This document shows positions 1-22,605 of a stretch of 64,000 nt of DNA, one piece after another. A model generated the notes under the pieces. The model was not told the DNA's origin, did not search any database, and saw nothing but the letters and a program-made list of their open reading frames with translations. Both the position numbers and the translations under genes were made by a program. Position 1 is the first letter of the stretch; every line of letters begins with the position of its first letter. Source of the stretch: Bacilli bacterium (lineage in GTDB: Bacteria > Bacillota_I > Bacilli_A > RFN20 > CAG-826). The stretch covers positions 62,792 to 126,791 of the forward strand of contig JALCDB010000002.1 in assembly GCA_022641095.1 (NCBI GenBank), written 5' to 3'.

Positions 1-904
1 TGAGGACCCCCTCCCCATGCTGCGGATGTCGATTGCGCCGAAAACGGCAGCGCAAAGAGAACGGCTGCTGGACGCTCTTACGCAACTTGCGGATACTGAC
101 CCGCTTTTGCGCTGCGAGGTGGATTCCATCACCCATGAGATCATTCTTTCTTTTTTGGGCCGGGTGCAGTTGGAGGTTGTTTCCGCTTTGCTGTCGGAAA
201 AATACAAGCTTGAAACAGTGGTAAAGGAACCCACCGTCATTTATATGGAGCGGCCGCTCAAAGCAGCCAGCCACACCATCCATATCGAGGTGCCGCCCAA
301 CCCGTTTTGGGCATCCATCGGACTGTCTGTTACACCACTCCCGCTTGGCTCCGGTGTACAATACGAGAGCCGGGTTTCGCTGGGATACTTGAACCAGAGT
401 TTTCAAAACGCTGTCAGGGATGGTATCCGTTACGGGCTGGAGCAGGGCTTGTTCGGCTGGAACGTAACGGACTGTAAGATTTGCTTTGAATACGGGCTTT
501 ATTACAGTCCGGTCAGCACGCCGGCGGACTTCCGCTCATTGGCCCCGATTGTATTGGAACAGGCATTGAAGGAATCAGGGACGCAACTGCTGGAACCTTA
601 TCTCTCCTTCACCCTCTATGCGCCCCGGGAATATCTTTCCAGGGCTTATCATGATGCACCGAAATACTGTGCCACCATCGAAACGGTCCAGGTAAAAAAG
701 GATGAAGTTGTCTTTACTGGCGAGATTCCCGCCCGCTGTATACAGGCATACCGTACTGATCTGGCCTTTTACACCAACGGGCAGAGCGTATGCCTTACAG
801 AACTGAAAGGGTATCAGGCCGCTGTCGGCAAGCCAGTCATCCAGCCCCGCCGTCCAAACAGCCGCCTGGACAAGGTGCGCTATATGTTTCAGAAGATAAT
901 GTAA
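1..904 (+). CDS. tet(W): Ribosomal-protection tetracycline resistance protein, Tet(W)-like; C-terminal ~295 aa only, 5' end lies outside the window
   Basis: Translation (…[35 protein letters not shown]…[15 protein letters not shown]) aligns colinearly with the C-terminal domains IV/V of TetM/TetO/TetW-family RPPs. The exact allele call (W vs O/32) is from memory of the family. Confidence 0.8.
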
Positions 905-935
905 CGTCTTGCGCAATCGATTTATCACGCACGCA

Positions 936-965
936 TAGACAAAACGGCTCTAAAAGTGCTATAAT
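936..965 (+). promoter_or_regulatory. Near-consensus sigma70-type promoter, TAGACA-18 nt-TATAAT, immediately downstream of the tet(W) stop and upstream of the HTH gene
   Basis: TAGACA at 936-941 and TATAAT at 960-965 with an 18-nt spacer. GGAG ribosome-binding site (RBS) and ATG at 992 follow. Confidence 0.4.
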
Positions 966-991
966 TCTGAATAACAACTACGGAGTTTAAT

Positions 992-1183
992 ATGGACTAC
1001 GCCCGACTAATCAAAGAACTGCGTTCAAAAATGCTTTTATCACAGATGGAGTTCGCTGAGTACCTTGGCGTTTCTTTTTCTGCAGTCAACAGATGGGAAA
1101 AAGGTCGCTATGAGCCAACCATAAAAACAAAGCGTAAGTTGAAAGAGCTTTTTATTAAATATGGATTGGTGGATCGAGACTAA
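992..1183 (+). CDS. XRE-family helix-turn-helix transcriptional regulator (63 aa)
   Basis: MLLSQMEFAEYLGVSFSAVNRWEKG is a classic Cro/CI-type HTH. An RBS precedes it. Confidence 0.7.
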   Translation: MDYARLIKELRSKMLLSQMEFAEYLGVSFSAVNRWEKGRYEPTIKTKRKLKELFIKYGLVDRD

Positions 1184-1184
1184 T

Positions 1185-1841
1185 ATGGACTATAAAAAAA
1201 TAACGGAAAATATAAAAAGCGGATTCACAAAGGATCAACTAAAAAGCTTAGATTTGATCACCGGGTTTGATTCGCTCAAGCTCGCCAATGGTGGCGATAA
1301 TGATGCAGAAGGATATCAGATTTTCACCCCCGCTTTTATCGTGAAAGATATGGTCAAAGCGATAGGGGAGAAAGACGTTTTTAATCCGGATAAAACAGTG
1401 CTCGAACCGACATCAGGTGATGGGGCGTTCACTACTTATATTTTATTAAGAAGATTAGAACGTGCGTTCAAGGAAGATAAAGATGAATTCGAGATCCAGG
1501 CACTAAAGTGCTTGTCTACCATCTATTCTATAGAGATGGATAAGGATCTAATTATCAAGCAAAGAAACAACATCCTGACTGTCTTCACGATATTTGGAAG
1601 GGATCATAAAATCGATTATAGCGATGGGTATCTTGATCTCGTCCGCTGCATGATCCTAACAAATTTTATGTGGGCTATGTTCAATGCGGATATTCCTGCA
1701 ACGTTCTTAATAGTCGAGGTGGCATATAAGATGCCAGAAGCAGAAAAAGGAAAAATGAAGTCGTTAGAATTCCCCGTCTGGGATATATCTGGCAACGGCG
1801 TCACATATCACATGGAAGGAGCGGAGATTAACTATGATTGA
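1185..1841 (+). CDS. Small MTase-fold protein with N6-adenine MTase motifs X and I but no canonical (D/N)PP(Y/F/W) motif
   Basis: FTPAFIVKDMV (motif X-like), LEPTSGDGAF (motif I), YSIEMD (motif II-like). The position expected for motif IV reads ILTNFMW. An alternative in-frame start lies at 1161. The gene overlaps the next one by 8 nt (ATGATTGA). Confidence 0.5.
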   Translation: MDYKKITENIKSGFTKDQLKSLDLITGFDSLKLANGGDNDAEGYQIFTPAFIVKDMVKAIGEKDVFNPDKTVLEPTSGDGAFTTYILLRRLERAFKEDKDEFEIQALKCLSTIYSIEMDKDLIIKQRNNILTVFTIFGRDHKIDYSDGYLDLVRCMILTNFMWAMFNADIPATFLIVEVAYKMPEAEKGKMKSLEFPVWDISGNGVTYHMEGAEINYD

Positions 1842-3567
1842 TAAAAAGAAGAATGATGCTCTTGAAGCCGAACAAACCTATAAAACAGCTGTTGAATCAG
1901 CTAATGACTACATTGAGAACTTCGATATTTTAGAAACCATCACAAATGTTGGTAACGACGAGGTTTTCACACCGAGAAAAACGTGTGATATGATGCTCGA
2001 TTCTCTCCCGGATGAAGTCTGGCATAACCCGAATTATAGATGGCTGAACCCGGCCACCAAAAATGGCATTTTTGAAAGGGAGATCGCAATAAGATTAGAC
2101 GAAGGTTTAAAAGATGTGATTCCGGATCAAGAAAAACGCAGAAAGCATATCTTACAGAACATGATTCATGCTATTGGTCAAACTAAATTTACGGCCAACG
2201 TAGCGAGAAGAACACTTTATTATTGTTCATCCGCAAATAGGGCTTGTGACGGAATACTAGCCGAAGATGGACACTACGTTAATGGATACGCGATTGGAAA
2301 CGGAACGTGGTTTGCTGATGAAGAAGGCAATATTAAAACACCATGTACTGATCATGAATTTGTCGATAGTGCGGGACGAAGAATGCCATCTACATGCAAG
2401 GGCGAGGAAAGAAAAAAATATAAATGTAAATATTGCGGCATCAGTGGAGTCTCAAACTATAACGATGCAAATCAAAGAGAAAAATATGCGTACGAATTAA
2501 TCCATATTAATCATTTGATAATTGGAAAGCACATGAGCAATAGATTCTTTGGAGGTAACAAAGATATGAAATTTGACATTATTATTGGTAATCCACCTTA
2601 TCAACTTAACGATGGCGGTGCACAAGCCTCGGCCAAACCTATTTATCAGCTGTTCGTAGATCAAGCAAAAGCTTTAAATCCACATTATCTATGCATGATT
2701 ATTCCTTCTAGATGGATGGCTGGAGGAAAGGGCTTAGATGACTTCAGAGCATCAATGCTAAAAGATAGGCACATTCGAGTATTACACGACTATACTGATG
2801 CTAAAGAATGCTTCCCAAATAATGAAATAAAAGGCGGAGTTTGTTACTTCCTCTGGAACGGAAAAGAAGAAGGAAAGTGCAAAATTTATAAACATACTGA
2901 TGGCACCATTTCAACAAGCACGAGATATCTCAAAGAGGATGGTGTTGATGTTTTTATTCGTGATGAAAGACTGATTGAAATTTTAAATAAGGTTAAAGCC
3001 AAAAAGTTCAAATCTTTCATGGATATCGTATCGCCAAGAAAACCGTTCGGTTTAGCAGGTGATTTCTTTAAGGATCCAAAGAAATATGATCTCCCACCTA
3101 TTAGTGATAAAAAAATCGAAGGGGGAATAACAATCTGTGGTCTTGATGAACATTTACAAAGAGTAAAAAGATATGTTCCACAGGATTATCCACTCCCTAA
3201 AAAAACCTATTTGCATGGATACAAAATGTTTATGGCTAGAAACCAAGGAAGTGGCACATTCGGAGAACCTTTCTCTGTTCCAATGTTTGCATACGACAAT
3301 GAAATATGTACAGAAACTTTTATTGTTATAGGCACATTTAAAACTGAACAAGAGATGAAAAACTGTTATTCCTATATCAAAACTAAGTTTTTTAGAGCTC
3401 TAGTTGGCATCCGAAAATTAGATCAAAACGCATCTCAAAGCATATATGAATATGCTCCGTTGCTTGATTTTACTAAGCCGTGGAATGATAAAGAACTTTA
3501 TGCAATGTTCGGACTTAGCGATGATGACATCAAATTTATTGAAGAGAACGTTCAGGAGATGAATTGA
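1834..3567 (+). CDS. Gamma-class N6-adenine DNA methyltransferase (577 aa) with a Cys-rich insertion and a C-terminal target-recognition region
   Basis: EVFTPRKTCDMMLD (motif X), LNPATKNGIF (motif I-like), DIIIGNPPYQ (motif IV), then LCMIIPSRWMAGG as in TaqI/Eco57I-like MTases. GGAGG RBS upstream. Confidence 0.7.
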   Translation: MIDKKKNDALEAEQTYKTAVESANDYIENFDILETITNVGNDEVFTPRKTCDMMLDSLPDEVWHNPNYRWLNPATKNGIFEREIAIRLDEGLKDVIPDQEKRRKHILQNMIHAIGQTKFTANVARRTLYYCSSANRACDGILAEDGHYVNGYAIGNGTWFADEEGNIKTPCTDHEFVDSAGRRMPSTCKGEERKKYKCKYCGISGVSNYNDANQREKYAYELIHINHLIIGKHMSNRFFGGNKDMKFDIIIGNPPYQLNDGGAQASAKPIYQLFVDQAKALNPHYLCMIIPSRWMAGGKGLDDFRASMLKDRHIRVLHDYTDAKECFPNNEIKGGVCYFLWNGKEEGKCKIYKHTDGTISTSTRYLKEDGVDVFIRDERLIEILNKVKAKKFKSFMDIVSPRKPFGLAGDFFKDPKKYDLPPISDKKIEGGITICGLDEHLQRVKRYVPQDYPLPKKTYLHGYKMFMARNQGSGTFGEPFSVPMFAYDNEICTETFIVIGTFKTEQEMKNCYSYIKTKFFRALVGIRKLDQNASQSIYEYAPLLDFTKPWNDKELYAMFGLSDDDIKFIEENVQEMN

Positions 3568-3568
3568 T

Positions 3569-6500
3569 ATGAAGGTAGATGTCTATAGATCAACTGAGAT
3601 CAACACTTCTGATAGCGTTAAGATATCTGGCAAGACCAGACAGTTCTTCCTTGACGAAGCAAACGACACCGATCAAGATCTCATTCTCCTATATATGTAT
3701 ATATTGCCTTCCTTCCAGGGCCATGGCGTCAAGGTTGGCATGGCAAAATGCAGACCAGAAGAAACTTTCTGGCACGGCATTAAAGCCAGGATCGCGGAGC
3801 AAAAGCACGAGCTTGCTTTAACTGACGACCAATACAGCAAATATGGCCTCAAACGCGAGGTCGTTTACTGGGGCGTCTGCGTTGATGCCCACAATGAATC
3901 GTTTAAGGATTATCACGTCCACGATGAGATCATGCACAACTGTGCTGGGCTCGCCGAGAAAGAGCAGGAGTGGTTCCAGAACGTTCCTACTGAAGAACTA
4001 ATATCCGCCTTCGAAGCATGCAGAAAAAACGATGTTTCAAAGGATATTTACACGCCTAGAAAAGAACAGGCTAAGGTGATCGAGGATCTGAAGGAGTACT
4101 TCGGCAAATATCCAACCGGTCACAGGTTCCTTTTGAACTGCAAGATGAGGTTCGGGAAATCCTTCACGACCTACAAATATTGTGAGGAAGCCGGTCTCAA
4201 TAAGATCTTGATCTTAACGTTCATTCCGGCGGTTGAGTCCTCTTGGAGAGACGATCTCTGCCATATCAAGAAGGAATATAAGTATTTCACCGACTTCAAT
4301 CTCAGAAAGCCCACGTTCGATCTAAAATCGCACACTGAGCCCTATGTAGTGTTTTTGTCGTTGCAGAACTACTTAGGCAGGGATAGCCAAAGTGCCGATG
4401 TCAAAGCCAAGATCAAGAAACTGCAGGACGTTGATTTCGATCTAGTCGTTCTTGATGAATACCATTTCGGTGCCTGGAACACCAGAACCCAGGACACTTT
4501 CGAGGACCTTGATAAAGATTATCAAAAGAACCTGAAGGACACTAAGGACGTCATCGCCAAGTTTGCGATCAAGACGAAGAAGACGATCTGCCTATCCGGA
4601 ACGCCATTCAGAGCATTGGCCCGCGGCGAATTCAACAACGAGTCCAGCTCGACTTACTCATATTTCGATGAGCAAAGGAACAAATATCCGAAGAGCGAAG
4701 AAAACGACTTCACAGTGGTGGATCCTAAGTATGCCGAATTCCCGGATATGAAGATATTCGGCTATAACATGACGAAGCTATTCGGCAACCTAACCTCCAG
4801 CGTTTTCTCCGATGACAAGATGCTCGGAAACAAATATTTTTCATTGAATAAGTTCTTCGAGACCAAGAAGGACGTCAACTATAACGAGGATTACGTCTTC
4901 ATTTATGAAGAAGAAATAAAACAGTGGCTGGAAATCATCAAGGGTGCCTCTATCCACGGCGACAAATTCCCTTATTCCAACCCTAAGATGAAGCAGAATA
5001 ACAAGCACACCCTTTGGCTCATGCCTACGGTTAGTTCCTGTATAGCGATGGCCAGGTTGCTGAAAGCCGATGATTATTTCTGCAAATATCAAATCATCAA
5101 TCTATCGGACAAAAGCGTGGGGTCCGGAACGGATGCCTATGATTTCTTGATGGATAACATCCAAGCGGCAAAGAACACGAATAAACTCGGGAGCATAGCG
5201 ATCACGGTCAACAAACTGACGATCGGTGTAACGGTGAAGGAGTGGTTCAGTATCTTCGTTTTGAAGGATCTATCCAGCCCGGAATCCTATTTCCAAGCCA
5301 TCTTCAGAATCCAGACGCCATTCAAGAAAAACGGCCAAATTCTCAAAGAGAGTGGTTATGTTTACGACTTCAATATCGACAGGGCCGCTGCCTTGTTATT
5401 GAAATACGCCGAAGAGAGCTCAAGGGACACGAACTATACGAAGCTACAAATTGCTAGATTGATCGTTAAGTACCTGCCTATCTTCGTCAATGGCGACATG
5501 AGTCATCCGATTTCTGACAAGGTCTTCTATGAACTCGCCGAATATGGCGATGCCAGCGGCGTGCCGCTTTCAAGAAAGATCACAGACACTTCAAAAACCA
5601 CAAGGATGATGGATGACGAGGTGATTGCAGAGATGCTTAACGATAAAGAAGTAAGCGAGATCATTAAGCACGTCTTTGCTCATGCGAAATTTGGAAAAAC
5701 AAAAACACGCACAATCCCTCCTAAACCAGAAGACGGATTCCAGACCAAGATCGCCAAGGAAGGCCGCGACAAAGGCTATGCCTTAGGCTTGGAGGATTCC
5801 AAAAAATACGTTGACTTGGACGACAACGAAGTCCAGGCCGCTTTCGAGAAAGCAATCGAGGATTACGTGCTCGAGTATTGCTCCAAAGACTATGATGAAA
5901 ACCAGGTCATCTGGTATACGAACGGCTTCAAGAAAGGATACGAAGGCGGTGTCAACGCCCCGATCAAGAAGATTCAATGCGGAAAAGATGACGGCGTTAA
6001 GTTCGTGGATCAAGTCAAAGGCAAATTCGGACCTAATATCAAATATACGGAGGCTACGAAGCAGCAGATTGAGAACTTCGTCAAAGCCTATCTTAACGAT
6101 ATAAACAACATCCCTAAGGAATATAGGGGAATGCTCTACAAACGCTGGTATTGCGAGTCCTTTAGAAAAGCGGTAAGAAACGTCTTAACCCCGGTAGTGG
6201 ACAGCAAAGATAAGAATTCCGTTGAAGATGCCGATAATGTTATGAAGCATATCTTGGCCAGGCTGTTTGAATTCCTTTATATCTCCGTTTACAGAGAAAC
6301 AACCTTCCAGGAGATCTTCAGTAATGCTGACCCTAACGTTTTCTTAGAGGCTGTCGGTATCACGAAGAAGGACTTCGAGGTTTTGAATAAATATCACATC
6401 TTCCAAGAAGACGTTCTAAATAACTACATCCATGATTTCTTTGTTAACGAATCACTCGGATCAAAACTAGATCTCAATGACGCCAAGATCAAAGCCCAGT

Positions 6501-6907
6501 ACAGAAACAGCTTTGACTGGTTTGGCTTTGGTGTTGATGATGAAGGGGAAATCCATGTGGATGAGAATGTCGGAACTCAGATCATCAAAGATGAAGAACC
6601 CGAAAATGATGAGCAAGATATTGTCGAATCCGAGGTCGCTCCTGAATCTGAATCGATTATGGAAGAGGCCGCTGCAGAACCCGAACCAGAACCCGAGCCC
6701 GATCCGGAAATCGCTCCTGTTCCTGAACCAGTTAAAAAGGATCCGGTCGAACAGATAGAGGAATTGCTCCGAAAGAATCCTAAAGGAATGAAATCCGGCA
6801 AGATCGCCGAGCTTTTAGGCGTTAGCAAACGCGATATTAATAAGATCATGTACGCCAATAAAGACAAGTTTACGGTTGATTTTTTCTTCAATTGGAAACT
6901 TAAATAG
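3569..6907 (+). CDS. 1112-aa multidomain protein: N-terminal T5orf172/GIY-YIG-like domain, SNF2/SF2 helicase core, acidic PE-repeat linker, C-terminal HTH
   Basis: N-terminal LYMYILPSFQGHGVKVGMAK parallels the T5orf172 signature of the next gene. RFGKSFT (motif I), VLDEYH (DExH), LSGTPF (motif III), QAIFRIQT (degenerate motif VI). EPEPEPEPDPEIAPVPEP linker. C-terminal KSGKIAELLGVSKRDINKIMY. Confidence 0.65.
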   Translation: MKVDVYRSTEINTSDSVKISGKTRQFFLDEANDTDQDLILLYMYILPSFQGHGVKVGMAKCRPEETFWHGIKARIAEQKHELALTDDQYSKYGLKREVVYWGVCVDAHNESFKDYHVHDEIMHNCAGLAEKEQEWFQNVPTEELISAFEACRKNDVSKDIYTPRKEQAKVIEDLKEYFGKYPTGHRFLLNCKMRFGKSFTTYKYCEEAGLNKILILTFIPAVESSWRDDLCHIKKEYKYFTDFNLRKPTFDLKSHTEPYVVFLSLQNYLGRDSQSADVKAKIKKLQDVDFDLVVLDEYHFGAWNTRTQDTFEDLDKDYQKNLKDTKDVIAKFAIKTKKTICLSGTPFRALARGEFNNESSSTYSYFDEQRNKYPKSEENDFTVVDPKYAEFPDMKIFGYNMTKLFGNLTSSVFSDDKMLGNKYFSLNKFFETKKDVNYNEDYVFIYEEEIKQWLEIIKGASIHGDKFPYSNPKMKQNNKHTLWLMPTVSSCIAMARLLKADDYFCKYQIINLSDKSVGSGTDAYDFLMDNIQAAKNTNKLGSIAITVNKLTIGVTVKEWFSIFVLKDLSSPESYFQAIFRIQTPFKKNGQILKESGYVYDFNIDRAAALLLKYAEESSRDTNYTKLQIARLIVKYLPIFVNGDMSHPISDKVFYELAEYGDASGVPLSRKITDTSKTTRMMDDEVIAEMLNDKEVSEIIKHVFAHAKFGKTKTRTIPPKPEDGFQTKIAKEGRDKGYALGLEDSKKYVDLDDNEVQAAFEKAIEDYVLEYCSKDYDENQVIWYTNGFKKGYEGGVNAPIKKIQCGKDDGVKFVDQVKGKFGPNIKYTEATKQQIENFVKAYLNDINNIPKEYRGMLYKRWYCESFRKAVRNVLTPVVDSKDKNSVEDADNVMKHILARLFEFLYISVYRETTFQEIFSNADPNVFLEAVGITKKDFEVLNKYHIFQEDVLNNYIHDFFVNESLGSKLDLNDAKIKAQYRNSFDWFGFGVDDEGEIHVDENVGTQIIKDEEPENDEQDIVESEVAPESESIMEEAAAEPEPEPEPDPEIAPVPEPVKKDPVEQIEELLRKNPKGMKSGKIAELLGVSKRDINKIMYANKDKFTVDFFFNWKLK

Positions 6908-6916
6908 GTGACGAAT

Positions 6917-7579
6917 ATGGAACAAGAGAACTTTGGATATATTTATATTCTTACAAACCCGTCATTCCCGGATTACGTGAAGATCGGATACGCGGATGAC
7001 GTCAAATCGAGAGTGGAGCAGCTCAACAGAAGCGAGTGCACCCCATTCGCCTTTAGGATCTACGCCACGTATAAAGTGAGTGATCGCCTTAAAGACATCC
7101 CGGTCCATCAATTGATCGACATACTTAATCCGAGCTTGCGAAGCAAGGATGAAGTGGACGGGAAGCTTAGGGTGCGTGAATTCTATGCCATGCTCCCAGA
7201 GGAAGCATATTCGCTCCTCGAGAAGATTGCCAAGATCAACGGGTTAGAAAAGAACCTGGTCCTTTATAAGAAGACTAAGGCTGACGAGGCAGATGAGAAG
7301 GCCGCCGATAAGATCAGCCAATTAAGCAAGAATCGCCATCATTTCAGGGATTGCGAGTTTTCATCGAGCCTGACTGGGCACACATATATAGGCAAGACGG
7401 GCGATAACGGCACGCTTTGCATCATTGATAAACAAACAGGAGAGGAAGTTCCTAACAATTCCAAGCCTTCGAAAAAGGCTATTGTTAAGCAGGCAGTGGT
7501 GGACCTTGGCGGATCCGCCGATGGCCACGACACCCTCTATCAGCTGTACCATCAACTGACCAAGATCCTGGGGAAGTAG
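6917..7579 (+). CDS. T5orf172 (GIY-YIG superfamily-like, MUG113) domain protein (~220 aa)
   Basis: GYIYILTNPSFPDYVKIGYADDVKSRVEQLN matches the T5orf172 signature. The ORF track starts at a GTG at 6908; the ATG at 6917 has a GGTGA RBS. Confidence 0.6.
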   Translation: MEQENFGYIYILTNPSFPDYVKIGYADDVKSRVEQLNRSECTPFAFRIYATYKVSDRLKDIPVHQLIDILNPSLRSKDEVDGKLRVREFYAMLPEEAYSLLEKIAKINGLEKNLVLYKKTKADEADEKAADKISQLSKNRHHFRDCEFSSSLTGHTYIGKTGDNGTLCIIDKQTGEEVPNNSKPSKKAIVKQAVVDLGGSADGHDTLYQLYHQLTKILGK

Positions 7580-7592
7580 GAAGTGAATATTG

Positions 7593-8591
7593 ATGACCCC
7601 ATTAAACTACTCTCGCTTTTCACACATATTCTTCGATCACGCCATTTATAAGGATGTGACCGCTGTTTGCCGTGCGTTAATCGGAACTTTAGTCAACAAT
7701 GGGAATATAGAAAACTCGAGAGGCGAGATCTATACGATAAACAGCCAAGTAGCTAAGGAGTTCTACGATGGGACAGCCAGCATATATCCGGAATTAGCGT
7801 CCGGTGCTGATTATGTCCTTAGCAAGGATGAAGAATCCGACTCCATGTGCGAGATGATCCTCGAAGATAATGTCGCCGTTGCCCAGAGAAATGGCCTTTT
7901 TGATGACCTTCTCGAAGCCATTAAAGACGATGGTTTAATGAATGCTAGAACAAAGGCTGAGATGATCGGCTTATATGACGCCAAGGAATACGTGAAATTC
8001 TTTAGAGCGGCTTTCGCCTATGCCATGTCCACGGAGAACAAAACGGCTGCAAAAAAGGCGAAAAGAAAGGCACCATCAACTTTAAGTGAAAGAGTGGATG
8101 CGATCAAAGAGATGCTTGAAGAACTAAGACTTAAAAAGCCCGTTTTAATCGTGATTCCAGATGATCTGGAAGATAACGAAGTTATCTATGCAAGCGAGCT
8201 TTTTAAGGCTTACTCAGAGGATGCCATGGTGGCTTTCGCAACGAAGTCTGACCTTGTCGCCTATCCGAAATATGCCCGTGATTTTGAAAGGCAGAGAAAA
8301 GATTTCTATGCTGCCGAATCAATCAGGGTCGGGTTAAGGGACTGCCAATTGGAAGACAGCAACTTTGATGAGCTCAAAAAAGAAATAAATGACGGCGTGG
8401 AAATGACAGCCAGTGCTTTGTATAGTTCCGGCCTTGAAAAGATAAGATCGGTAATGGATAAGGCGGTCACCGTCCCGCTCTCATCTTTGCTGGCTTTGAT
8501 ACCTTCATGGATCGGGCCTTCAGAGAGAAAAGGCGTGGTTCACATGCTCGTCAATGACGGAAAGATAAAATGGGTGGACGAAGATGAATAA
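7593..8591 (+). CDS. Hypothetical 332-aa protein, first gene of a three-gene cassette (LmuA-position, no recognisable catalytic motif)
   Basis: ORF is coupled by an 8-nt overlap to the next gene. No motif recognised by eye. Confidence 0.4.
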   Translation: MTPLNYSRFSHIFFDHAIYKDVTAVCRALIGTLVNNGNIENSRGEIYTINSQVAKEFYDGTASIYPELASGADYVLSKDEESDSMCEMILEDNVAVAQRNGLFDDLLEAIKDDGLMNARTKAEMIGLYDAKEYVKFFRAAFAYAMSTENKTAAKKAKRKAPSTLSERVDAIKEMLEELRLKKPVLIVIPDDLEDNEVIYASELFKAYSEDAMVAFATKSDLVAYPKYARDFERQRKDFYAAESIRVGLRDCQLEDSNFDELKKEINDGVEMTASALYSSGLEKIRSVMDKAVTVPLSSLLALIPSWIGPSERKGVVHMLVNDGKIKWVDEDE

Positions 8592-9024
8592 GTTATATAA
8601 CTCCTCGTTTGAAATGGAACTAAGGACGCTCATGGTCCTTTATATCAGCCCTCTCGAATCCATGTCAGCAGACCAGATCTACTCGTTCGATTTCATCTGC
8701 TGCTACGGGGAGGATTTCGAAGTATCAGAAAATAACCTTCACGGGGACTCCGCGTATAAGTTTGGAGAACTGGCCCTGAGGAAGAGCGTGATCAACGATG
8801 CGGTCAAGGATCTGGTCGTCCGCGGTATGATCGATGTGGTCACCGGAGACGGCTTCAAATACAAGATCAACGATCGCGGGATCGAATTCATATCATCGCT
8901 GGATAACCAATATTCAGATTTATATACAAAGATCGCAGGCGATGCATTCACCAAATATGGGAAGCTCACCGAGCAAGAACTGCTAGCGATCATAAACAAA
9001 GCGGCAATGGGGAGGAATAAGTAA
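8584..9024 (+). CDS. Hypothetical 146-aa protein (middle gene of the cassette, LmuC-position)
   Basis: Translationally coupled on both sides (8591/8584 overlap; 9024/9027). Confidence 0.4.
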   Translation: MNKLYNSSFEMELRTLMVLYISPLESMSADQIYSFDFICCYGEDFEVSENNLHGDSAYKFGELALRKSVINDAVKDLVVRGMIDVVTGDGFKYKINDRGIEFISSLDNQYSDLYTKIAGDAFTKYGKLTEQELLAIINKAAMGRNK

Positions 9025-9026
9025 GT

Positions 9027-10784
9027 ATGCTTAAAATCACGAGATTATGGGCTAAATCAACAGACGGATCCATGTCGGAGATCCCTTTCACCGATGGATT
9101 GAATATTATCCACGGCCCATCAAACACCGGAAAGACTGTCATTGTCGACTGCATCGACTATATCTTCGGCGGCAAATTCACTCCAAATCCAACTCTAAAC
9201 CTCGAAGTGGTGGGAATGGATATGGATGCAAACGGGCATCATTATCACCTAAGTAGGGCATTCAATAGTCCTAACGTCCACGTTGAATCGGACGATGATA
9301 ACATCAAAGACGGAGATTACAGCTCACAGAAAAAACCTTCGCTTGGAGATATATATCTCCGTATGCTTGGAATGGAGCCTCCGATCAAGATCCTGTCATC
9401 GCTTAGCTATACCTTCCAGAACCTAACGTTTAGGGAGTTCTCCCATACCATCGTTTTGAAAGAGGATGACATAAGGGATAGAAAAAGCATTCTTATGCCA
9501 ACCCAGAAGACGTCCGAGACCGTCCTCAAATCGGCGGTACTTTATTTGATAAATGGGCTCACCTACGCGGATCCGAACATCGAGAGCCCTAAGGAGCGTG
9601 CGAAAAGGAAAAAGATCCTGGCGAAATATATCAACGAGAGGATCGGCAAATATAAAACCCTCATAGAACAATATGAGAAGGACAAAAAAGAAGGCTCTGA
9701 TCAGTTCAAGACATCGATTGACGATATTTTGGGCCAAATCGAGTCCACGCAAGGCCAGTTGAACGATAATATCGCCGCTTCGGGAAAACTATCTGGCGAG
9801 TTGATGGAAATCAGCGACAAGATCGCCGAATGCGAGAACCTTGGTGACAAATATACGATTCTTCATTCTCAATATGAGTCCGATCTCCGCAGAATGCAGC
9901 TCATCATAGATGGCGAAACGCATGCGGACGAAGTCGAGAAGATCACTAAGTGTCCGTTCTGCAACGGAGAGCTGCCTAAAGAACAGGAGCAATCCTGCGT
10001 TGAAGCGGCACAAGCTGAATTGCTTAAACTGATCCCTCAAATCAAGGACCTCGAAGATGCTCAGGGTGATCTAGTCAAGGAAAAGGAAGAACTCCAAGCC
10101 AAGAAAGCCGAACTTGAAGGAAAGATAAATGAGCTCGAGGCCAAGATCAACAGCGAGATCAAACCGCTTTTAGCAAAGCTAAGGAATCAACTCAACCTTT
10201 ACAAGGAATCTATCCATAGCGAGGCGGAATATGAAAGCGATAAAAAGATCCTCGCCGATTTGGAGAACCAGCTACGCGAATTGACCGAGGAAAAAGTCGA
10301 GAACGAACGCTTTAATCAGCTCGAGTGCTTCGATGACAGGTTCATCAACACGATAACCAGATATCTCAGAGAGGCATTGGCCGCCTCGAATTACGAGGGT
10401 GCCGAAACATGCATATTTGACATTAATCAGTTCGATGTCAGGGTTAACGGCCAAATGAAACAGCACGAAGGCGAAGGCTACCGCGGATTGCTTAATTCGA
10501 TCACGGCTGTCGCGTTCCACAGGATGCTGCTAGACAACGCCAAATATAAACCTGGATTGCTAATCATGGATTCGCCGATCCTGTCATTGAAGGAAGCGGA
10601 TAGTGTTCCGTTGGACGACTCAATGAAGAAGGGGTTATTCAACTACCTGGCACAGACCGCCGAGAACATGCAGATCATAGTGGTGGAGAACGAGCTGCCT
10701 GAATTCGACAGCGAGAAAGCCAACCTGATCCATTTCACAAAAGACGACAATGGCCGCTACGGCTTCATATCAAACGTCAGATAA
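9027..10784 (+). CDS. SMC/Rad50-like ABC ATPase with a central coiled coil bearing a CxxC hook-like motif (Lamassu LmuB / DUF3732-like)
   Basis: Walker A IIHGPSNTGKTV. Long heptad-rich middle region with CPFCNG. C-terminal GEGYRGLLNSITAVAFHRML…PGLLIMDSPILSLKE (Walker B/D-loop-like). Confidence 0.6.
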   Translation: MLKITRLWAKSTDGSMSEIPFTDGLNIIHGPSNTGKTVIVDCIDYIFGGKFTPNPTLNLEVVGMDMDANGHHYHLSRAFNSPNVHVESDDDNIKDGDYSSQKKPSLGDIYLRMLGMEPPIKILSSLSYTFQNLTFREFSHTIVLKEDDIRDRKSILMPTQKTSETVLKSAVLYLINGLTYADPNIESPKERAKRKKILAKYINERIGKYKTLIEQYEKDKKEGSDQFKTSIDDILGQIESTQGQLNDNIAASGKLSGELMEISDKIAECENLGDKYTILHSQYESDLRRMQLIIDGETHADEVEKITKCPFCNGELPKEQEQSCVEAAQAELLKLIPQIKDLEDAQGDLVKEKEELQAKKAELEGKINELEAKINSEIKPLLAKLRNQLNLYKESIHSEAEYESDKKILADLENQLRELTEEKVENERFNQLECFDDRFINTITRYLREALAASNYEGAETCIFDINQFDVRVNGQMKQHEGEGYRGLLNSITAVAFHRMLLDNAKYKPGLLIMDSPILSLKEADSVPLDDSMKKGLFNYLAQTAENMQIIVVENELPEFDSEKANLIHFTKDDNGRYGFISNVR

Positions 10785-10802
10785 AACGTTATATAAGAAC
10801 AC

Positions 10803-10834
10803 GCCTCATCACGCAAAGTGGTGGGGCTTTTTTC
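10803..10834 (+). terminator. Rho-independent terminator closing the nine-gene block
   Basis: GCCTCATCAC-gcaaa-GTGGTGGGGC hairpin (with G·U pairs) followed by TTTTTTC. Confidence 0.5.
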
Positions 10835-10907
10835 ATGTCCGAAAACAGTCTACTTATTTTCACTTATTTTGCACTTATCCTGGCTTTTTGAGTAATCGAA
10901 ATGACCT

Positions 10908-10941
10908 GGGTTAAGATGGATCCGTGGCCGATATAAAGACC
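10908..10941 (+). promoter_or_regulatory. Copy 1 of a conserved phage regulatory element (GGTTA…GTGGCCGAT(A/T)TAAAG…), upstream of the sigma-like gene
   Basis: GGTTAAGATGGATCCGTGGCCGATATAAAGACC. Compare the copies at 15851 and 40018. Confidence 0.35.
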
Positions 10942-11118
10942 ACATAAAACTTCTCGTTGAAGAGATGGGCCCATCGAAACAGCGGGATGCATCGCGGGTT
11001 CCTGGAAAGGGATCACAGCAATGCCTCCTGTTTTCAAAATGCCTTTAAAAGGCAGAAATAGGCCGATCGCTCCGCTTTGCATCCTGCTCCTCAAACGGGA
11101 GAAAGGACCAGCAAAGCT

Positions 11119-11661
11119 ATGACAAACAACGAAAAACCAAAGATCGTAATTGACGACCCATCATTACTCAAACCGACAGAGGACAGACCTTACCCTTACC
11201 AGCTCGAAGGCACGAACATCATCATCTACTTATCGGAGAAGGACTACACCCCGATCCACCGCATGGAGGAAGCCGAACGAATGGCTTCCAGACGCGAGAG
11301 CAGATGCCTGATCCCCGCCAAAGAGCGTGGCGAATGGATGAGGTGCCAGGGTGACTGCTCACAGTGCCCCCGCACCCGCACAGGTCGTCCTCTTTCTTTA
11401 GATCAGCATGCAGAAGAAACGGGAAACGAGCCGGCAGGGGATGACGATATCGCCGCCGAACTGGACAAAAAGGAGCGTTTAGAGAGCCTTTTGTACGCCA
11501 TCCCTGAATTAGATCCAATCGACCAGAAAATCGTGTCCCTGTACCTGAATTACGCAACCGAGAGCCAAATAGCTGCCGAGTGTGGGGTATCGCAGCCCGC
11601 GATAAACAAAAGACTGAAGAATCTCGTCACCAAGCTCAGGGAAATCATCAAAAAATCATGA
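11119..11661 (+). CDS. Sigma-70 region-4-like / phage transcriptional regulator with a Cys cluster
   Basis: C-terminal IVSLYLNYATESQIAAECGVSQPAINKRLKNLVTKLRE is a sigma region 4 HTH. CQGDCSQCP cluster. The track ORF starts at 11077; the ATG at 11119 is preferred. Confidence 0.5.
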   Translation: MTNNEKPKIVIDDPSLLKPTEDRPYPYQLEGTNIIIYLSEKDYTPIHRMEEAERMASRRESRCLIPAKERGEWMRCQGDCSQCPRTRTGRPLSLDQHAEETGNEPAGDDDIAAELDKKERLESLLYAIPELDPIDQKIVSLYLNYATESQIAAECGVSQPAINKRLKNLVTKLREIIKKS

Positions 11662-11665
11662 TCCA

Positions 11666-11715
11666 GGTTATAAGGCTCCCCCTAGAAGTCCGAATTAAAG
11701 TGAGGCCGATAGATG
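11666..11715 (+). promoter_or_regulatory. Copy 2 (rearranged variant) of the conserved phage regulatory element
   Basis: GGTTATAAGG…AGTCCGAATTAAAGTGAGGCCGATAGATG, followed by AAGGAGG and an ATG (a 48-codon ORF at 11725-11871). Confidence 0.35.
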
Positions 11716-11870
11716 ACCTTAAAGGAGGACCCGAATGGAAGACTTAAAAAGCCCCGCCGATGAGCTTCAGCAAGCAATCGAAGCCTTGGCGGCAATATCT
11801 CTCACCTCTGATCTTCTGGCAAAGAAGCTAATAGGCCTTTCGCTAAAGATAAAGGAGGGCCAAGACCAGA

Positions 11871-12173
11871 ATGAGCGAAAACAATCTTAAAAAGGTTGAT
11901 GAGCTAGTGGTGGACTTGATCGAAAAACTAACCGATCTCCACGAAAAGCTCAACCAACCAAAGAAGGAGAAGCAAGCTCCTGCACCCGAACCTAAGCCGG
12001 AAATCAAACTCGAAGACGTACGCCACGTACTAGCCGAGATTGCCAGGGACGGAAAGGCCGAAGAGGTGCGTAAGTTGCTCGCTAAGCACAATGCTAAGCG
12101 TCTATCCGAAGTAAAACCGGAGGAATACGCAACCTTGCTAGAAGAAGCAAAGGACCTCAGCAATGCCGGCTAA
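11871..12173 (+). CDS. Hypothetical phage protein (100 aa, charged, helical)
   Basis: ORF with RBS; first long gene of the replication module. Confidence 0.4.
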   Translation: MSENNLKKVDELVVDLIEKLTDLHEKLNQPKKEKQAPAPEPKPEIKLEDVRHVLAEIARDGKAEEVRKLLAKHNAKRLSEVKPEEYATLLEEAKDLSNAG

Positions 12174-12345
12174 AGGGCATGCGTTGCTTGGTCCATCGGC
12201 TAGCCATATATGGCTAAAATGTCCGCCTTCAGCCCGTCTATCCGAATTCATCAAGGACCAGGAAACGGAGTTCACGAAGGAGGGCGAAGCGGCACATCAG
12301 CTCGCCGAGAACAAATTAAAGGAGGCGTTATCACATGAAAGATAA
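12163..12345 (+). pseudogene. N-terminal fragment (60 aa) of the Cas4-like DUF2800 nuclease, in a different frame from the main body
   Basis: HALLGPSASHIWLKCPPSARL is the conserved N-terminus of DUF2800/Cas4-like phage exonucleases, including the N-terminal Cys ligand. Confidence 0.45.
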
Positions 12346-13294
12346 TGATCCCCGCAACTCCTCGTTCTATACCGAGGAAATGGAAGAAACCACGTCCAAC
12401 TACGTGTCCTACATCCTTGAGCTTCTTAAAGAGGTGAAGGGCACCTGCCGCGATCCGATCGTGATGGTGGAACAACAGGTCGACATATCAAAGTACGTCC
12501 CTGAGTCATTCGGAACGGTTGACGCGTGCATAGTGGGAAGTGGAATCCTCCATATCGTGGACTTCAAATATGGCAAAGGCGTCCCAGTCAGTGCCATCGA
12601 GAATCCACAGATGAAACTCTACGCCCTTGGGTGTTTGGAGATGTTCGACTGCCTGTATGAAATCGACCAAATCGAGATGCATATCTTCCAGCCTAGACTA
12701 TCCAATCTCAGCAGCTTCTCCATGAAAAAGGAGGAACTGATCAAATGGGCGGAAGAAGTCCTCATCCCGACAGCCAAATTGGCCTACGAAGGCAAAGGCG
12801 AGTTCAACGCCGGCGATCACTGCAGGTTCTGCAAGTCCAGAGCGACATGCCGAGCCAGGGCGGAGAAAAACCTAAAGCTAGCGGACTACGACAACCAGAA
12901 GCCACCTCTATTAACCGATGACGAAATCGAAGAAGTTCTGGAAAAGGTCGATGATCTGACCGCTTGGGCGAACGCCATAAAGGACTACGCTCTGCACGAA
13001 GCCATGAATGGCAAGAAATGGAAGAATTGGAAACTCGTGGAAGGGCGATCCAACCGCAAGTTCTCCGATGACCAGGCTGTGGCCGAAGCCGTAATCGCTG
13101 CTGGCTTAGATCCTTACGAAAAGAAGTTACTCAGTATTACTGAACTTCAGAAAAGGATCGGAAAAACAACCTTCGCCGAAGTGGTGGAGAGATTCGTTAT
13201 CAAGCCAGCCGGAAAGCCAACTTTAGTACCTCGATCCGATCGCAGGGAAGAAATCAACAGTGCCGCATCTGATTTTGCGGACTTAGACAATTGA
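12335..13294 (+). CDS. PD-(D/E)xK Cas4-like exonuclease, DUF2800 family (main body)
   Basis: IVDFKYGKG (PD-(D/E)xK core) and a C-terminal C-x2-C-x5-C cluster (DHCRFCKSRATCRA). Confidence 0.65.
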   Translation: MKDNDPRNSSFYTEEMEETTSNYVSYILELLKEVKGTCRDPIVMVEQQVDISKYVPESFGTVDACIVGSGILHIVDFKYGKGVPVSAIENPQMKLYALGCLEMFDCLYEIDQIEMHIFQPRLSNLSSFSMKKEELIKWAEEVLIPTAKLAYEGKGEFNAGDHCRFCKSRATCRARAEKNLKLADYDNQKPPLLTDDEIEEVLEKVDDLTAWANAIKDYALHEAMNGKKWKNWKLVEGRSNRKFSDDQAVAEAVIAAGLDPYEKKLLSITELQKRIGKTTFAEVVERFVIKPAGKPTLVPRSDRREEINSAASDFADLDN

Positions 13295-13881
13295 AAGGAA
13301 ATGTAACCAACATGACAAAAGTTAACTCCCATCCTACCAAAGTCATTACTGGCAAGGATACCAGATGGTCCTACGCAAACGTGTGGGAACCTCGTGCATC
13401 TGCAGAAGGTGCGACCCCTAAATATTCGATCTCACTCATCATCCCTAAGACTGACACCGTTACGATCGCCAAGATCAACGCTGCCATCGAAGCGGCCTAC
13501 AACGAAGGCCAATTCAAGCTCAGAGGCAACGGGAAGACTGTTCCTCCTCTTGCTTCCTTGAAAACCCCTCTCCGCGATGGAGATGTGGAACGTCCTGACG
13601 ATCCTGCTTATAAAAACGCATATTTCGTCAACGCAAACGGCACACAAGCCCCGGAGATCGTTGATGCGGCTTGTAATCCAATCCTCGTTCATTCCGAGGT
13701 CTACAGCGGCGTTTACGGAAGAGCTTCTATCTCCTTCTACGCTTACTCATCCAACGGTTCCCGCGGTATCGCCTGCGGATTGAATAATCTCCAAAAGATC
13801 CGCGATGGTGAACCTTTAGGTTCCAAATCAACTGCAGAGAGCGATTTCGCTACTGATGAGTCCGAAGACTTCCTCGACTAA
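13291..13881 (+). CDS. Phage protein, DUF2815-like (putative ssDNA-binding), partner of DUF2800
   Basis: Position and size (196 aa) are typical of the DUF2800–DUF2815–PolA module. Confidence 0.45.
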   Translation: MKGNVTNMTKVNSHPTKVITGKDTRWSYANVWEPRASAEGATPKYSISLIIPKTDTVTIAKINAAIEAAYNEGQFKLRGNGKTVPPLASLKTPLRDGDVERPDDPAYKNAYFVNANGTQAPEIVDAACNPILVHSEVYSGVYGRASISFYAYSSNGSRGIACGLNNLQKIRDGEPLGSKSTAESDFATDESEDFLD

Positions 13882-15844
13882 AACCCTGTCGATCGATATC
13901 GAGACTTATAGCAGCAACAATCTAAACGAATGCGGAGTCTACAAATATTGCGAAGCACCTGATTTTGAGATCTTGCTCTTCGGATATTCCGTGGACGGCG
14001 GTGATGTGCAGGTGGTTGATCTTGCTGATGGCGAGGTTATACCGCCGCACATCATTTCTTTAATAAAAAGCGATGACTGCCTCAAATACAGCTTCAATTG
14101 CTCATTCGAAAGGATCTGCCTATCTCGATTCCTCGGCATGAAGACCGGAGAGTACTTGGCTCCGGAAAGCTGGCGATGCACGATGGTGGCTTCAAGCTAT
14201 CTCGGGCTTCCTCTATCTCTAAAAGGCGTAGGTGCAGTTCTGGGCCTTGACGAGCAGAAAATGGAGGAGGGTAAAGAACTAATAAAGTTCTTTTGCACCC
14301 CGGTAAAACCAAGCAAGGCGAACGGTGGAGTCACCAGAAACCTATTCAAATACAACACCTACAAACGCGACATGATGATCAAGTACTGCAAACGCGATGT
14401 CGAAGTACAGATGAACATCCAGAAGCGTCTTGAAAACTACCCACTTCCCGATTGGCTATGGGCCGAATATCACCTCGATCAACGCATCAACGACAGGGGT
14501 GTGTTCCTGGACCAGGAACTCGCCGCTAAGGCGATAAAGATTGATGGAATTATCCATCAAGAGCTCGAAAAAGCCATGACCGAGATCACGGAGATCGACA
14601 ACCCGAACTCCCCAGCACAGATCAAGGTGTGGTTAGCCAAATATGGCGTTGAGCCGGAAGACCTCGGCAAAAAGAGCGTTGCGGCCCTTGAGAAGGAATT
14701 CTCCGGGAACGATATCGGCGATGTCATGAGGCTTCGCCAAATGCTCGCAAAAACGTCAACCAAAAAGTACGAACGAATGATGTCCGCGGTGTGCTCTGAC
14801 GGAAGGATCCGCGGCATGTTCCAATTTTATGGAGCGAACCGTACTGGAAGATTTTCTTCCAGACTGGTGCAGTTGCATAACCTTCCGCAGAACAAAATCC
14901 CGGAAATCGGCGTGGTCCGCGATCTGGTCCTCAAGGAAGACGTGGATTCGATCAAAATCCTCTATGAAAACGTCCCCATGGTGCTTTCGCAGCTCATCAG
15001 GACGGCCTTTATCCCAGCCAAGGGCGGAAAGTTCGTGGTTGCGGATTACGCGGCGATAGAAGCCAGGGTATTGGCCTGGTATGCCGGCGAGGAGTGGAGG
15101 ATGAAGGCGTTCGCCAACAACGAGGACATTTATTGCTCATCGGCAAGCAGGATGTTCGGCGTCCCTGTTGTCAAGAACGGCATCAACGGCGACCTCAGAA
15201 AGAAGGGTAAAATCGCCGAGCTCGCTTTGGGCTATGGCGGTGGAGCCGGTGCTTTGATCGCCATGGGTGCCTTGGACGAAGGATCCGGACTCAAGGAAGA
15301 TGACCTCGACCCATTAGTCAAAACGTGGAGAAACGCCAACCCTAAAATAACAAGATTCTGGCGACAAGTCGGCGACACCATCTTGGAAGTGGTCAAGACC
15401 GGCAAATCACTAAAACAGCCATATTCGGTGACCGTTGGAAGGCTCACTTTCACTTACCGCGGATCGATGCTCTTCATCAAACTTCCAAGCGGGAGATGCC
15501 TCTCCTACGTGAAGCCTAAGGTCGTCATTAACAAATTCGGAAGCGAATCCATCTCCTACGAGGGGATAGGCGACCAGAAGAAATGGGCGAGGCTCGAATC
15601 CTATGGGCCTAAGTTCGTTGAGAACATCGTCCAGGCAACCGCACGAGACCTCCTTTGCTACGCCATGCGTAACCTTAAGGACTACCGCATCGTGATGCAC
15701 GTTCATGACGAAGTGATCATCGAGGATTTCGATGGGGTTTCACACGCTTTCATGGAAAAGGAGATGGCCAAGATCCCGGAATGGGCATCCGGCTTGATCC
15801 TTAGGGCGGACGGCTACGAATGTCCCTTTTATCAGAAAGACTGA
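13856..15844 (+). CDS. Family A DNA polymerase (phage-type, with 3'-5' exonuclease domain)
   Basis: LSIDIETYS (Exo I), KYGVEPEDLGKKSV…, RIVMHVHDEVIIE (motif C). Confidence 0.8.
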   Translation: MSPKTSSTKTLSIDIETYSSNNLNECGVYKYCEAPDFEILLFGYSVDGGDVQVVDLADGEVIPPHIISLIKSDDCLKYSFNCSFERICLSRFLGMKTGEYLAPESWRCTMVASSYLGLPLSLKGVGAVLGLDEQKMEEGKELIKFFCTPVKPSKANGGVTRNLFKYNTYKRDMMIKYCKRDVEVQMNIQKRLENYPLPDWLWAEYHLDQRINDRGVFLDQELAAKAIKIDGIIHQELEKAMTEITEIDNPNSPAQIKVWLAKYGVEPEDLGKKSVAALEKEFSGNDIGDVMRLRQMLAKTSTKKYERMMSAVCSDGRIRGMFQFYGANRTGRFSSRLVQLHNLPQNKIPEIGVVRDLVLKEDVDSIKILYENVPMVLSQLIRTAFIPAKGGKFVVADYAAIEARVLAWYAGEEWRMKAFANNEDIYCSSASRMFGVPVVKNGINGDLRKKGKIAELALGYGGGAGALIAMGALDEGSGLKEDDLDPLVKTWRNANPKITRFWRQVGDTILEVVKTGKSLKQPYSVTVGRLTFTYRGSMLFIKLPSGRCLSYVKPKVVINKFGSESISYEGIGDQKKWARLESYGPKFVENIVQATARDLLCYAMRNLKDYRIVMHVHDEVIIEDFDGVSHAFMEKEMAKIPEWASGLILRADGYECPFYQKD

Positions 15845-15850
15845 TGTTCT

Positions 15851-15885
15851 GGTTATAGGTGGCCGATTAGATGTCCGAATTAATA
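15851..15885 (+). promoter_or_regulatory. Copy 3 of the conserved phage regulatory element, upstream of the primase gene
   Basis: GGTTATAGGTGGCCGATTAGATGTCCGAATTAATA, then GAAGGAGG and the ATG at 15905. Confidence 0.4.
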
Positions 15886-15904
15886 TGAAGGAGGTTCCAA
15901 TCTC

Positions 15905-18172: not shown

Positions 18173-18311
18173 GTAAAACCAAATAGCGACATGGTCTGTC
18201 ATAGTCAAATCCAAAAATCCTCTATAAGGCAGAAAAAACAGCAATATAGAAAAGTTTAGGAAATGAGTATGAACGACCGTGTCATCCAAGCCAAATTAGG
18301 AGGAAAAAATC

Positions 18312-18626
18312 ATGTTATTTCTTGGAAGACCTTATACAGACGAAAACGGGGAAATCGATCAAGCCCTCATGGAGGAGATCAATGACCCGGCGACAATCGG
18401 TCGCGTCCGCGATTGGTGCCTCAAGCACAAGCACCACATTAAAACCATCAATTGGAAGACCTCATCCCTTGACATCATGAAGATGATCAACGAGCAACTC
18501 GGCACCAGCCTCACCCACAACCAGGTCAAGGACGCTTTGGTGGACATCGATGTCTACCCGGTGGATCCCGATTCCTACGAGTGGCATTACTGCCTCAGCG
18601 ATAAATGGCTCAAGAAAAGCTTCTAG
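18312..18626 (+). CDS. Hypothetical phage protein (104 aa)
   Basis: ORF with AGGAGG RBS. Confidence 0.35.
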   Translation: MLFLGRPYTDENGEIDQALMEEINDPATIGRVRDWCLKHKHHIKTINWKTSSLDIMKMINEQLGTSLTHNQVKDALVDIDVYPVDPDSYEWHYCLSDKWLKKSF

Positions 18627-18889
18627 AGCAAAAGCTCATTAAAGCGGTGAGGAAAGTGGGAGGGCTGGCACTCAAATTCGTCAGCCCAGGCTATGCCGGC
18701 ATGCCGGACCGATTGGTGCTTATTGCCTATGGCAAGATAGCGTTCGTTGAGGTCAAATCGCCCGGCAAGAAGCCCAGGAAGATCCAGGCTGCAAGACATA
18801 AGCAGCTGAGTGATCTCGGCTTCAATGTTTACGTCCTGGATCAAGAGGACCAGATAGGAGGGATCATCGATGCAATATCAGCCACATGA
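18605..18889 (+). CDS. VRR-NUC domain nuclease
   Basis: GMPDRLVLIAYGKIAFVEVKSPGKKPRKIQAARHKQL is the VRR-NUC (PD-(D/E)xK) signature. Confidence 0.65.
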   Translation: MAQEKLLEQKLIKAVRKVGGLALKFVSPGYAGMPDRLVLIAYGKIAFVEVKSPGKKPRKIQAARHKQLSDLGFNVYVLDQEDQIGGIIDAISAT

Positions 18890-20661: not shown

Positions 20662-20790
20662 GAGTTAAACATAGTTTAAGAGATTTGTAAAAAGGCGGTT
20701 CTTCTGTTAGTGTTAAAATAGGCGAAAGCCATATAGATACGAGTCCGCGGGAGCACCGTGGGCTTTTTCATTTCAATGCTGGAGGATCTT

Positions 20791-22504: not shown

Positions 22505-22605
22505 CGACAATAAAAGCAAAAATCTCTCCTTACGCGTGCGAGGTCTAAACAACTTGCTATATCAAAGATATAGAGCGTTACTAGTGGTGTAAGGAGTTAC
22601 GCAAT

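Follow-up and report, generated by a model that had tools for sequence, protein, structure and literature searches.

Carriage of tet(W) within a prophage-type element of a Bacillota host has a precedent in PhiSsUD.1. This phage-like element of Streptococcus suis is listed among the carriers of tet(W) in a 2026 survey, together with ICEs, IMEs, and plasmids (PMC12904643). The Streptococcus pyogenes prophages Phim46.1 and Phi1207.3 carry mef(A) plus tet(O) or msr(D) (PMC4288039, PMC4260502), and Phim46.1 is reported to be transferred (PMC4288039). The encoding and movement of antibiotic resistance genes (ARGs) by phages is disputed, and careful surveys have found very few cases, which seemed defective (PMC9723715). 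In a study of the pig gut, ARGs occurred on 0.02% of the viral contigs from total-microbiota (bacterial) assemblies, and the prophages were judged probably defective (PMC9723715).

Here, we analyzed a 64-kb stretch of DNA from a “Bacilli bacterium” metagenome-assembled genome (MAG), referred to below as the window, together with related contigs. In this genome, tet(W) lies between the intact attL and attR sites of a prophage. The first-pass annotation of the window had proposed a prophage or composite element carrying tet(W) and antiphage cargo; this proposal is supported, in that both tet(W) and the defense block fall between attL and attR. It had also put tet(W) directly upstream of the defense block and prophage on the same strand, as the map of open reading frames (ORFs) confirms, and the left boundary beyond the window, where the prophage indeed begins at window position −1561.

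Left flank and attachment sites

The window itself starts inside tet(W), and its left flank was taken from window-identical contigs and from exact-protein records of the source MAG. One such sequence (L043) comes from the end of a 142-kb JGI contig. It matches window positions 1 to 10904 at 100% identity and extends 5.4 kb further left, reaching 4.37 kb to the left of the tet(W) start. It contains, in order, glycosyltransferase and acyltransferase genes of the left host flank (about 55% GC), a tRNA-Thr(GGT) gene (L043 positions 3753 to 3826, 5′ of attL), attL, a 212-bp arm with two 31-nt repeats, the tet(W) cassette, and the phage. Because the tRNA-Thr gene, attL, and 212 bp of phage arm are found to the left of tet(W) and phage sequence resumes at window position 918, the gene is placed between attL and attR. 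A contig from a separate sample (L046) contains the host sequence, tRNA, arm, and left junction at 99.98% identity. The right junction, from tet(W) into position 918 as in the window, recurs in six samples (L001, L003, L004, L006, L008, and L010). An 80-aa ORF across the left junction (P0160) and the acyltransferase (P0163) are both recorded on a contig of 250,513 bp, the length also given for the MAG contig that carries the full Tet(W) of L001 and all window proteins looked up, which ties the structure to the source genome. Leftward extension (L043 and L046), the check that the first-pass annotation had proposed, thus revealed neither a host context for tet(W) nor an element boundary near position 1000 or 11000.

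The ends of the prophage were located using contigs that share the exact recombinase 1 protein (right) or the exact HTH protein (left). The prophage spans window positions −1561 to 43674, which gives a length of 45,236 bp; when the cassette is subtracted, about 42.96 kb remain. On the right, the attR core is CCA (43672 to 43674, + strand), with the phage ending at ...CATTACAGCCA and the host beginning at AATGTCATAAGC, and attR reads ...CAGCCA/AATGTC (slashes mark junctions). The right end in the window and in two contigs (L032 and L034) reads ...CATTACAGCCA/AATGTCATAAGCGCTCGAC... and is followed by the host genes DegV, RimP, NusA, and IF2, while L038 has the same phage right end and then a different host flank after CCA. 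A further contig, L033, is the joined attP, in which the window sequence through 43674 is followed by TAAGACAACAAGAGG... (the 212-nt left arm, TAAGACAAC..., with its two 31-nt repeats) and then by window positions 918 to 1079; it represents the tet(W)-free version. The attR core was placed at CCA because the right ends of the window, L032, and L034, of L038, and of L033 part there. On the left, attL in L043 follows the tRNA end ...GGCACCA and reads ...GGGGCACCA/TAAGACAAC.... Overall, attL was seen in L043, L007, L002, and L047 and attR in the window and L038; no tRNA or attL was found within the 64-kb window.

The attP (CAGCCATAAG) and attB (GCACCA...) sites have only CCA in common, which fits serine recombination, where a very short attP/attB identity (2-bp crossover) is expected. 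Based on this identity and on domain content, recombination between attP and attB is probably carried out by one or both of two predicted large serine recombinases, each with Resolvase, Recombinase, and Zn_ribbon domains. Recombinase 1 (437 aa) is encoded at 40628 to 41941 and recombinase 2 (526 aa as called in L033) at 41929 to 43509, both on the + strand; the longest ORF for the latter starts at 41860.

Four tet(W)-free contigs (L007, L002, L005, and L009) carry tRNA-Thr(GGT), CCA, the TAAGACAAC... arm, and two 31-nt repeats and then run directly into window position 918. One of them, L007, is 99.86% identical over 2,131 nt, and L002 and L007 are from different hosts, judging from the differences in their tRNA sequences and upstream flanks. 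In a related species (L048), the same gene order is present with an acyltransferase that is 68% identical, and the identical downstream tRNA-Thr is unoccupied. Look-ups of right-flank proteins returned matches only in phage-occupied contigs of the source host. In two Logan contigs, the assembly breaks off precisely at the attR core, with L034 ending at 43701 and L041 beginning at 43672 (SRR16379640, SRR16378897). With k = 31, such breaks point to a second path into the host flank, and occupied and empty tRNA-Thr sites appear to coexist in SRR16378897 and SRR16379640.

The tet(W) cassette and its insertion

Window positions 2 to 904 form an open frame that ends in TAA and specifies 300 residues from the C terminus of a ribosomal protection protein. 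This is the 3′ part of tet(W) (1 to 904, + strand, 301 codons including the stop), and the gene starts 1,016 nt to the left of the window. The complete 639-aa tet(W) is present in L001 and L043 (L043 positions 4373 to 6292), both of which are identical to the window. The full protein contains the GTP_EFTU, EFG_III, EFG_IV, and EFG_C domains, an EF-G-like GTPase set. By convention, a tet gene takes the name when its full-length product is at least ~80% identical to the reference Tet(W), and the gene here falls within that ~80% identity limit. The tet(W)-like ribosomal protection gene reported at 1 to 904 in the first-pass annotation is borne out by the 99.5 to 99.9% nucleotide identity of window positions 1 to 917 to plasmid genes annotated as tet(W) in Corynebacterium, Limosilactobacillus, and Lactobacillus (positions 2 to 904 are 99.8% identical to plasmid copies) and by the NCBI name for exactly the L001/L043 protein, Tet(W) (MCI1244820.1). 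A lysogen would probably be tetracycline resistant.

The cassette comprises 2,267 bp, from −338 to +13 relative to tet(W) and counting CGATTT as a 6-bp duplication, and contains only tet(W) and its upstream leader region. It keeps the leader ORF/peptide and the attenuator, a 16-bp hairpin followed by a T-run (L043 positions 4300 to 4334), and with these elements in place it looks self-sufficient for regulated tet(W) expression. At its other end, the final 13 nt (CGTCTTGCGCAAT; 905 to 917, + strand) are the point at which the canonical 3′ flank (GCAAGCGTTCATTGC...) stops. Matches to plasmid tet(W) end precisely at 917 in 8 records, and the window lacks the remainder of this flank, which 4 plasmids carry. 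The cassette end cuts through the loop of the hairpin in the canonical 3′ flank, so read-through out of tet(W) into the cargo operon may be possible.

The canonical tet(W) region of ~2.7 kb (pLR581 and Corynebacterium and L. amylovorus/L. oris plasmids) is 99.7% identical over the 2,271 nt present here. As shared by 4 plasmids, it spans about −663 to +54/+93, compared to which the phage copy is shorter at both ends (−338 versus about −663 and +13 versus +54 to +93). The insert is a subfragment of the canonical region, because the canonical span exceeds −338/+13 at both ends. The phage copy also lacks the small recombinase genes that adjoin tet(W) elsewhere.

The left cassette junction in L043 reads ...GTGGCCGATTT/CTTTTAGATAC..., and the right junction reads ...GCGCAAT/CGATTTATCACGC, which corresponds to window position 918. 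By sequence comparison, the CGATTT at 918 to 923 (+ strand) is the right copy of the duplicated target, at which the phage restarts within the second 31-nt repeat of the left arm. CGATTT occurs at both junctions, and the length of the duplication is given as 2 to 6 bp because the donor itself has ATTT at the left junction, in common with the target (donor, AAAAATTT/CTTTTAG; target, GGCCGATTT/ATCACGC). At the right junction, donor and target have no common sequence. The cassette interrupts the second left-arm repeat at a distance of 212 bp from attL, with the cargo promoter 13 bp downstream, and no phage sequence was lost. No transposase gene was found within the 2,267-nt insert, and no inverted repeat was found with both arms at the insert ends (L043 positions 4039 and 6305). 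Because the insert has neither a transposase nor terminal repeats, we infer an origin by illegitimate (microhomology-assisted) recombination, with the widespread ~2.7-kb tet(W) region as the donor. We rejected capture by a serine recombinase acting at a pseudo-site, since donor and phage do not share even a dinucleotide at the right junction. The acquisition of tet(W) is a clean 2.27-kb insertion and is datable as recent.

It is very improbable that tet(W) lies outside the prophage, as it would if the phage had integrated beside a resident tet(W) or if a deletion had fused the gene to a left-truncated, immobilized prophage. Such a history would fit the change at 917/918, where plasmid homology ends and homology to the tet(W)-free phages starts exactly, and it would fit a window with no tRNA, no attL, and no further canonical 3′ flank. 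However, L043 and L046 have the tRNA-Thr, attL, and the complete left arm directly to the left of the cassette, with no phage bases lost, and the junction ORF P0160 is on record on the source contig; both deletion and adjacency were rejected once L043 showed the left flank. The breakage of many contigs in tet(W) or at its edge (L003, L004, L006, L008, L010, and the left end of L001) might instead reflect an assembly artifact, with contigs and MAG misjoined through a multicopy tet(W). We consider this barely credible, given that the whole cassette is covered, with unique sequence to either side, in three or more assemblies (L043 fully, the MAG by its protein records, and L001 from −338 into the phage) and that assemblies from JGI, Logan, and ENA, representing more than six samples, are in agreement. 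A chimera is also unlikely because the two junctions are the halves of a single phage repeat with a target duplication.

We therefore favor, as very probable, a phage at tRNA-Thr(GGT) with cargo and with a 2,267-bp tet(W) fragment inserted near attL, so that tet(W) could move with it. A temperate tailed phage would have integrated at the 3′ CCA of the host tRNA-Thr(GGT) gene via its large serine recombinase(s), with cargo near the att site made up of a putative type IIG-like restriction-modification pair, a T5orf172 protein, and Lamassu. The tet(W) fragment would then have been inserted in the second left-arm repeat, with duplication of CGATTT and without phage loss. By excising from there, the phage could bring tet(W) to further tRNA-Thr sites.

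Defense cargo, repeats, and phage gene content

The cargo region adjoins the attachment site inside attL/attR and lies behind its own promoter-like site. All of its genes described here are on the + strand. Based on a domain match, the first encodes an HTH_3 (XRE-type) regulator (63 aa; 992 to 1183), and it is followed by a gene for a protein of 218/226 aa with no family match (1161 to 1841); no IMG/VR relatives of the 226-aa protein were found. An Eco57I-type / type II(G) DNA methyltransferase (1834 to 3567) precedes a 1112-aa protein that is like the N-terminal part of type IIG restriction-methyltransferases and is the probable nuclease partner (3569 to 6907). PADLOC identified the T5orf172-domain protein at 6908 to 7579 as the candidate defense PDC-S57. 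The adjacent Lamassu / ABC-3C system (7590 to 10784) is predicted from LmuA (7590 to 8591), LmuC (8584 to 9024), and LmuB (9027 to 10784) in one operon, with PADLOC values of 4e-54, 3e-45, and 5e-163, respectively, and the Pfam domains CTD6 and MC2.

Within the methyltransferase gene, the stretch from ~2154 to 3552 has at least three alleles (window/L007; L002; L006/L008/L010) in phages that are otherwise 99.9 to 100% identical, and this variation looks like specificity-region swapping. A short contig (L047; JGI 3300041929, 923 nt) comes from a related phage at another tRNA-Thr with the same left arm and promoter. Its HTH gene region is 69% identical, and its downstream genes are different. 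Because L047 shares the arm and differs in cargo, the attP-proximal site appears to be a cargo hot spot.

The promoter-like site ahead of the HTH and cargo genes (TAGACA-18-TATAAT with TG; 936 to 965, + strand) has 11 of 12 matches, lies 32 nt past the tet(W) stop, and is the top-scoring site in positions 1 to 3000. Promoter-like sites in that interval are no more numerous than in shuffles (7 found versus 6.7 expected). The site is conserved in tet(W)-free phages, and since L007, L002, and L033 have it, we assign it to the phage. A near-consensus promoter ~30 nt after the tet(W) stop had been noted in the first-pass annotation; the site is there, but it belongs to the phage.

The same annotation held that tandem serine recombinases and direct repeats mark the right end at ~43.6 kb. 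Both are present, but the repeats are not att sites: a reading of the 31-nt repeats as att duplications was rejected, because attP (L033) puts the crossover at CCA. The right-arm repeats (two full and one partial; 43576 to 43658, + strand) have the core TGGCCGATTTGATAAAA in common with the left-arm repeats and are internal to the phage, 35 to 98 nt before the attR core. The two full right-arm copies (43576 to 43637) are 94% identical to each other, and the two left-arm copies (L043 positions 3982 to 4038) are 100% identical over 26 nt. In the circular form, five 31-nt repeats with this core are arranged around attP, at most ~400 nt upstream of the cargo promoter (L033 positions 12950 to 13260). 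The array resembles iterons or operators, and tet(W) is in its last repeat. A partial repeat core (GTGGCCGAT) is also found at 10915 to 10932, overlapping a minus-strand gene at 10864 to 11082. That gene, the sole minus-strand gene called inside the phage, encodes 72 aa with no family and is located between Lamassu and the sigma-like gene. The idea of an att-like site at 10915 to 10932 that parts the defense block from the phage was rejected, the block being inside attL/attR.

The phage early region (11077 to 25876, + strand) encodes a sigma-like regulator, exonuclease, DNA polymerase, primase-helicase, helicase, ParB-methyltransferase, and others. The late region (26041 to 39523, + strand) encodes a large terminase, portal, protease, major head protein, tape measure, tail proteins, and holin. 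With head, packaging, and tail genes all found, the element is classed as a tailed phage. The 45-kb prophage is apparently complete, and only apparently so because neither an endolysin nor a divergent repressor module was recognized in it. A 41-nt motif (GGTTATAAG...AAGTCCGAATTA) occurs three times in intergenic positions right before gene starts (11666 to 11706, 15851 to 15891, and 40018 to 40058); since the phage has a sigma-like gene (11077 to 11661), the copies may be phage-specific promoters. Of the ORFs at 23194 to 23976 and 24740 to 25876, one encodes an S-adenosylmethionine synthetase N-terminal domain and the other BspA-type leucine-rich repeats, and these could be involved in counter-defense or host interaction.

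All long ORFs from position 1 to about 48.5 kb are on the + strand, and GC content is 38 to 52% over 1 to 49 kb versus 55 to 61% from 50 kb on. The earlier description of 43 kb of co-oriented sequence foreign to a ~60% GC host holds for orientation and low GC, but host GC is nearer 55 to 58% than 60%, and the low GC runs past the phage. Outside attR, the host flank at 43675 to 49200 is also low in GC (39 to 49%). This flank includes a dGTPase-type defense match at 44584 to 45945 and an ABC transporter gene whose frame is split or shortened in other strains (L013, L032, and L040).

Megablast searches returned no match for the prophage among deposited phages and none for the cargo region among plasmids. 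When species-representative genomes were scanned for exact patterns of the tet(W)/phage junction and the repeat core, nothing or one chance match emerged. A metagenome scan for the repeat core gave only chance matches in unrelated genes, and IMG/VR scans for the repeat core, both cassette junctions, and the left arm gave nothing related. The IMG/VR relatives of recombinase 2 are only 50 to 55% identical and those of the terminase are at most 84% identical at the amino acid level. No tet(W) was present within 10 kb of the terminase in related IMG/VR phages.

Mobility and comparison with known resistance prophages

Since tet(W) is located inside the integration boundaries, the phage could in principle spread it. 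We put the chance that the tet(W)-bearing phage is active at roughly one in three to one in two. Full activity, with excision at CCA, packaging of 45.2 kb, and lysogenization of several Bacilli species at tRNA-Thr(GGT), is a possibility to which we give distinctly less than an even chance. If this were true, the phage would deliver tetracycline resistance and three antiphage systems in one step. It would also serve one of the most abundant resistance genes of the gut as a true phage vector (through lysogenic conversion rather than transduction), with a capture event resolved to the base and isogenic tet(W)-free phages available for comparison.

Alternatively, and with close to an even chance, the insertion, other defects, or the added length may block excision or packaging, in which case tet(W) would be inherited vertically in one host lineage. 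Consistent with this, the left tet(W) junction was seen in one host context only (3 contigs), and no contig was found that has the tet(W)-bearing version in attP form, in a second host, or in IMG/VR, nor was either cassette junction found in IMG/VR. The cassette splits the repeat array beside attP, with possible impairment of regulation or recombination, and makes the genome 5.3% longer. The ARG-bearing prophages of the pig gut study likewise looked inactive (PMC9723715). On the other hand, both recombinase genes are intact, as are attL and attR. The ORF structure of the right 13 kb is that of the attP-form phage (L033), at 99.6% identity, and the left part is 99.86% identical to the copy in another host (L007). 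The contig ends at the attR core also suggest that occupied and empty sites coexist. In addition, three contigs (L006, L008, and L010) match the window at 100% identity through 2153 and diverge beyond it, so that the tet(W)/918 junction occurs with two methyltransferase alleles, which argues for ongoing recombination with related phages. Finally, the joined attP contig, which is tet(W)-free, hints at activity of the phage.

Here, then, a resistance gene is found between prophage att sites, with near-identical relatives in several hosts and a joined attP form. The prophage is thereby a specific candidate, open to experimental test, for phage-mediated spread of tet(W). It also indicates that an attP-proximal cargo site of defense genes can accept a resistance gene.

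The tet(W) phage described here belongs to a known, rare kind of resistance-bearing prophage. Like PhiSsUD.1, it carries tet(W) within a prophage-type element of a Bacillota host. It differs from PhiSsUD.1 in its insert, which measures 2.27 kb and has tet(W) as the sole resistance gene, and in its host, an uncultured “Bacilli bacterium” of high GC content. Further differences are integration at tRNA-Thr by predicted serine recombinases and the lack of sequence similarity to any deposited phage (megablast). The likeness to Phim46.1 and Phi1207.3 is that of a temperate phage whose cargo includes a resistance gene of the ribosomal protection or efflux type. Those phages have other resistance genes, hosts, and integration sites, and their transfer was demonstrated, whereas the phage here is known from sequence. 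As in other prophages with defense cargo at att sites (moron/defense hot spots), Lamassu and restriction-modification genes are clustered at the prophage end, but in this case an antibiotic resistance gene has joined the same hot spot. The distinguishing points are the minimal single-gene insert, junctions resolved at the base level, and the isogenic tet(W)-free phages and attP form, together with the targeting of tRNA-Thr by tandem serine recombinases and the position of tet(W) beside three defense systems.
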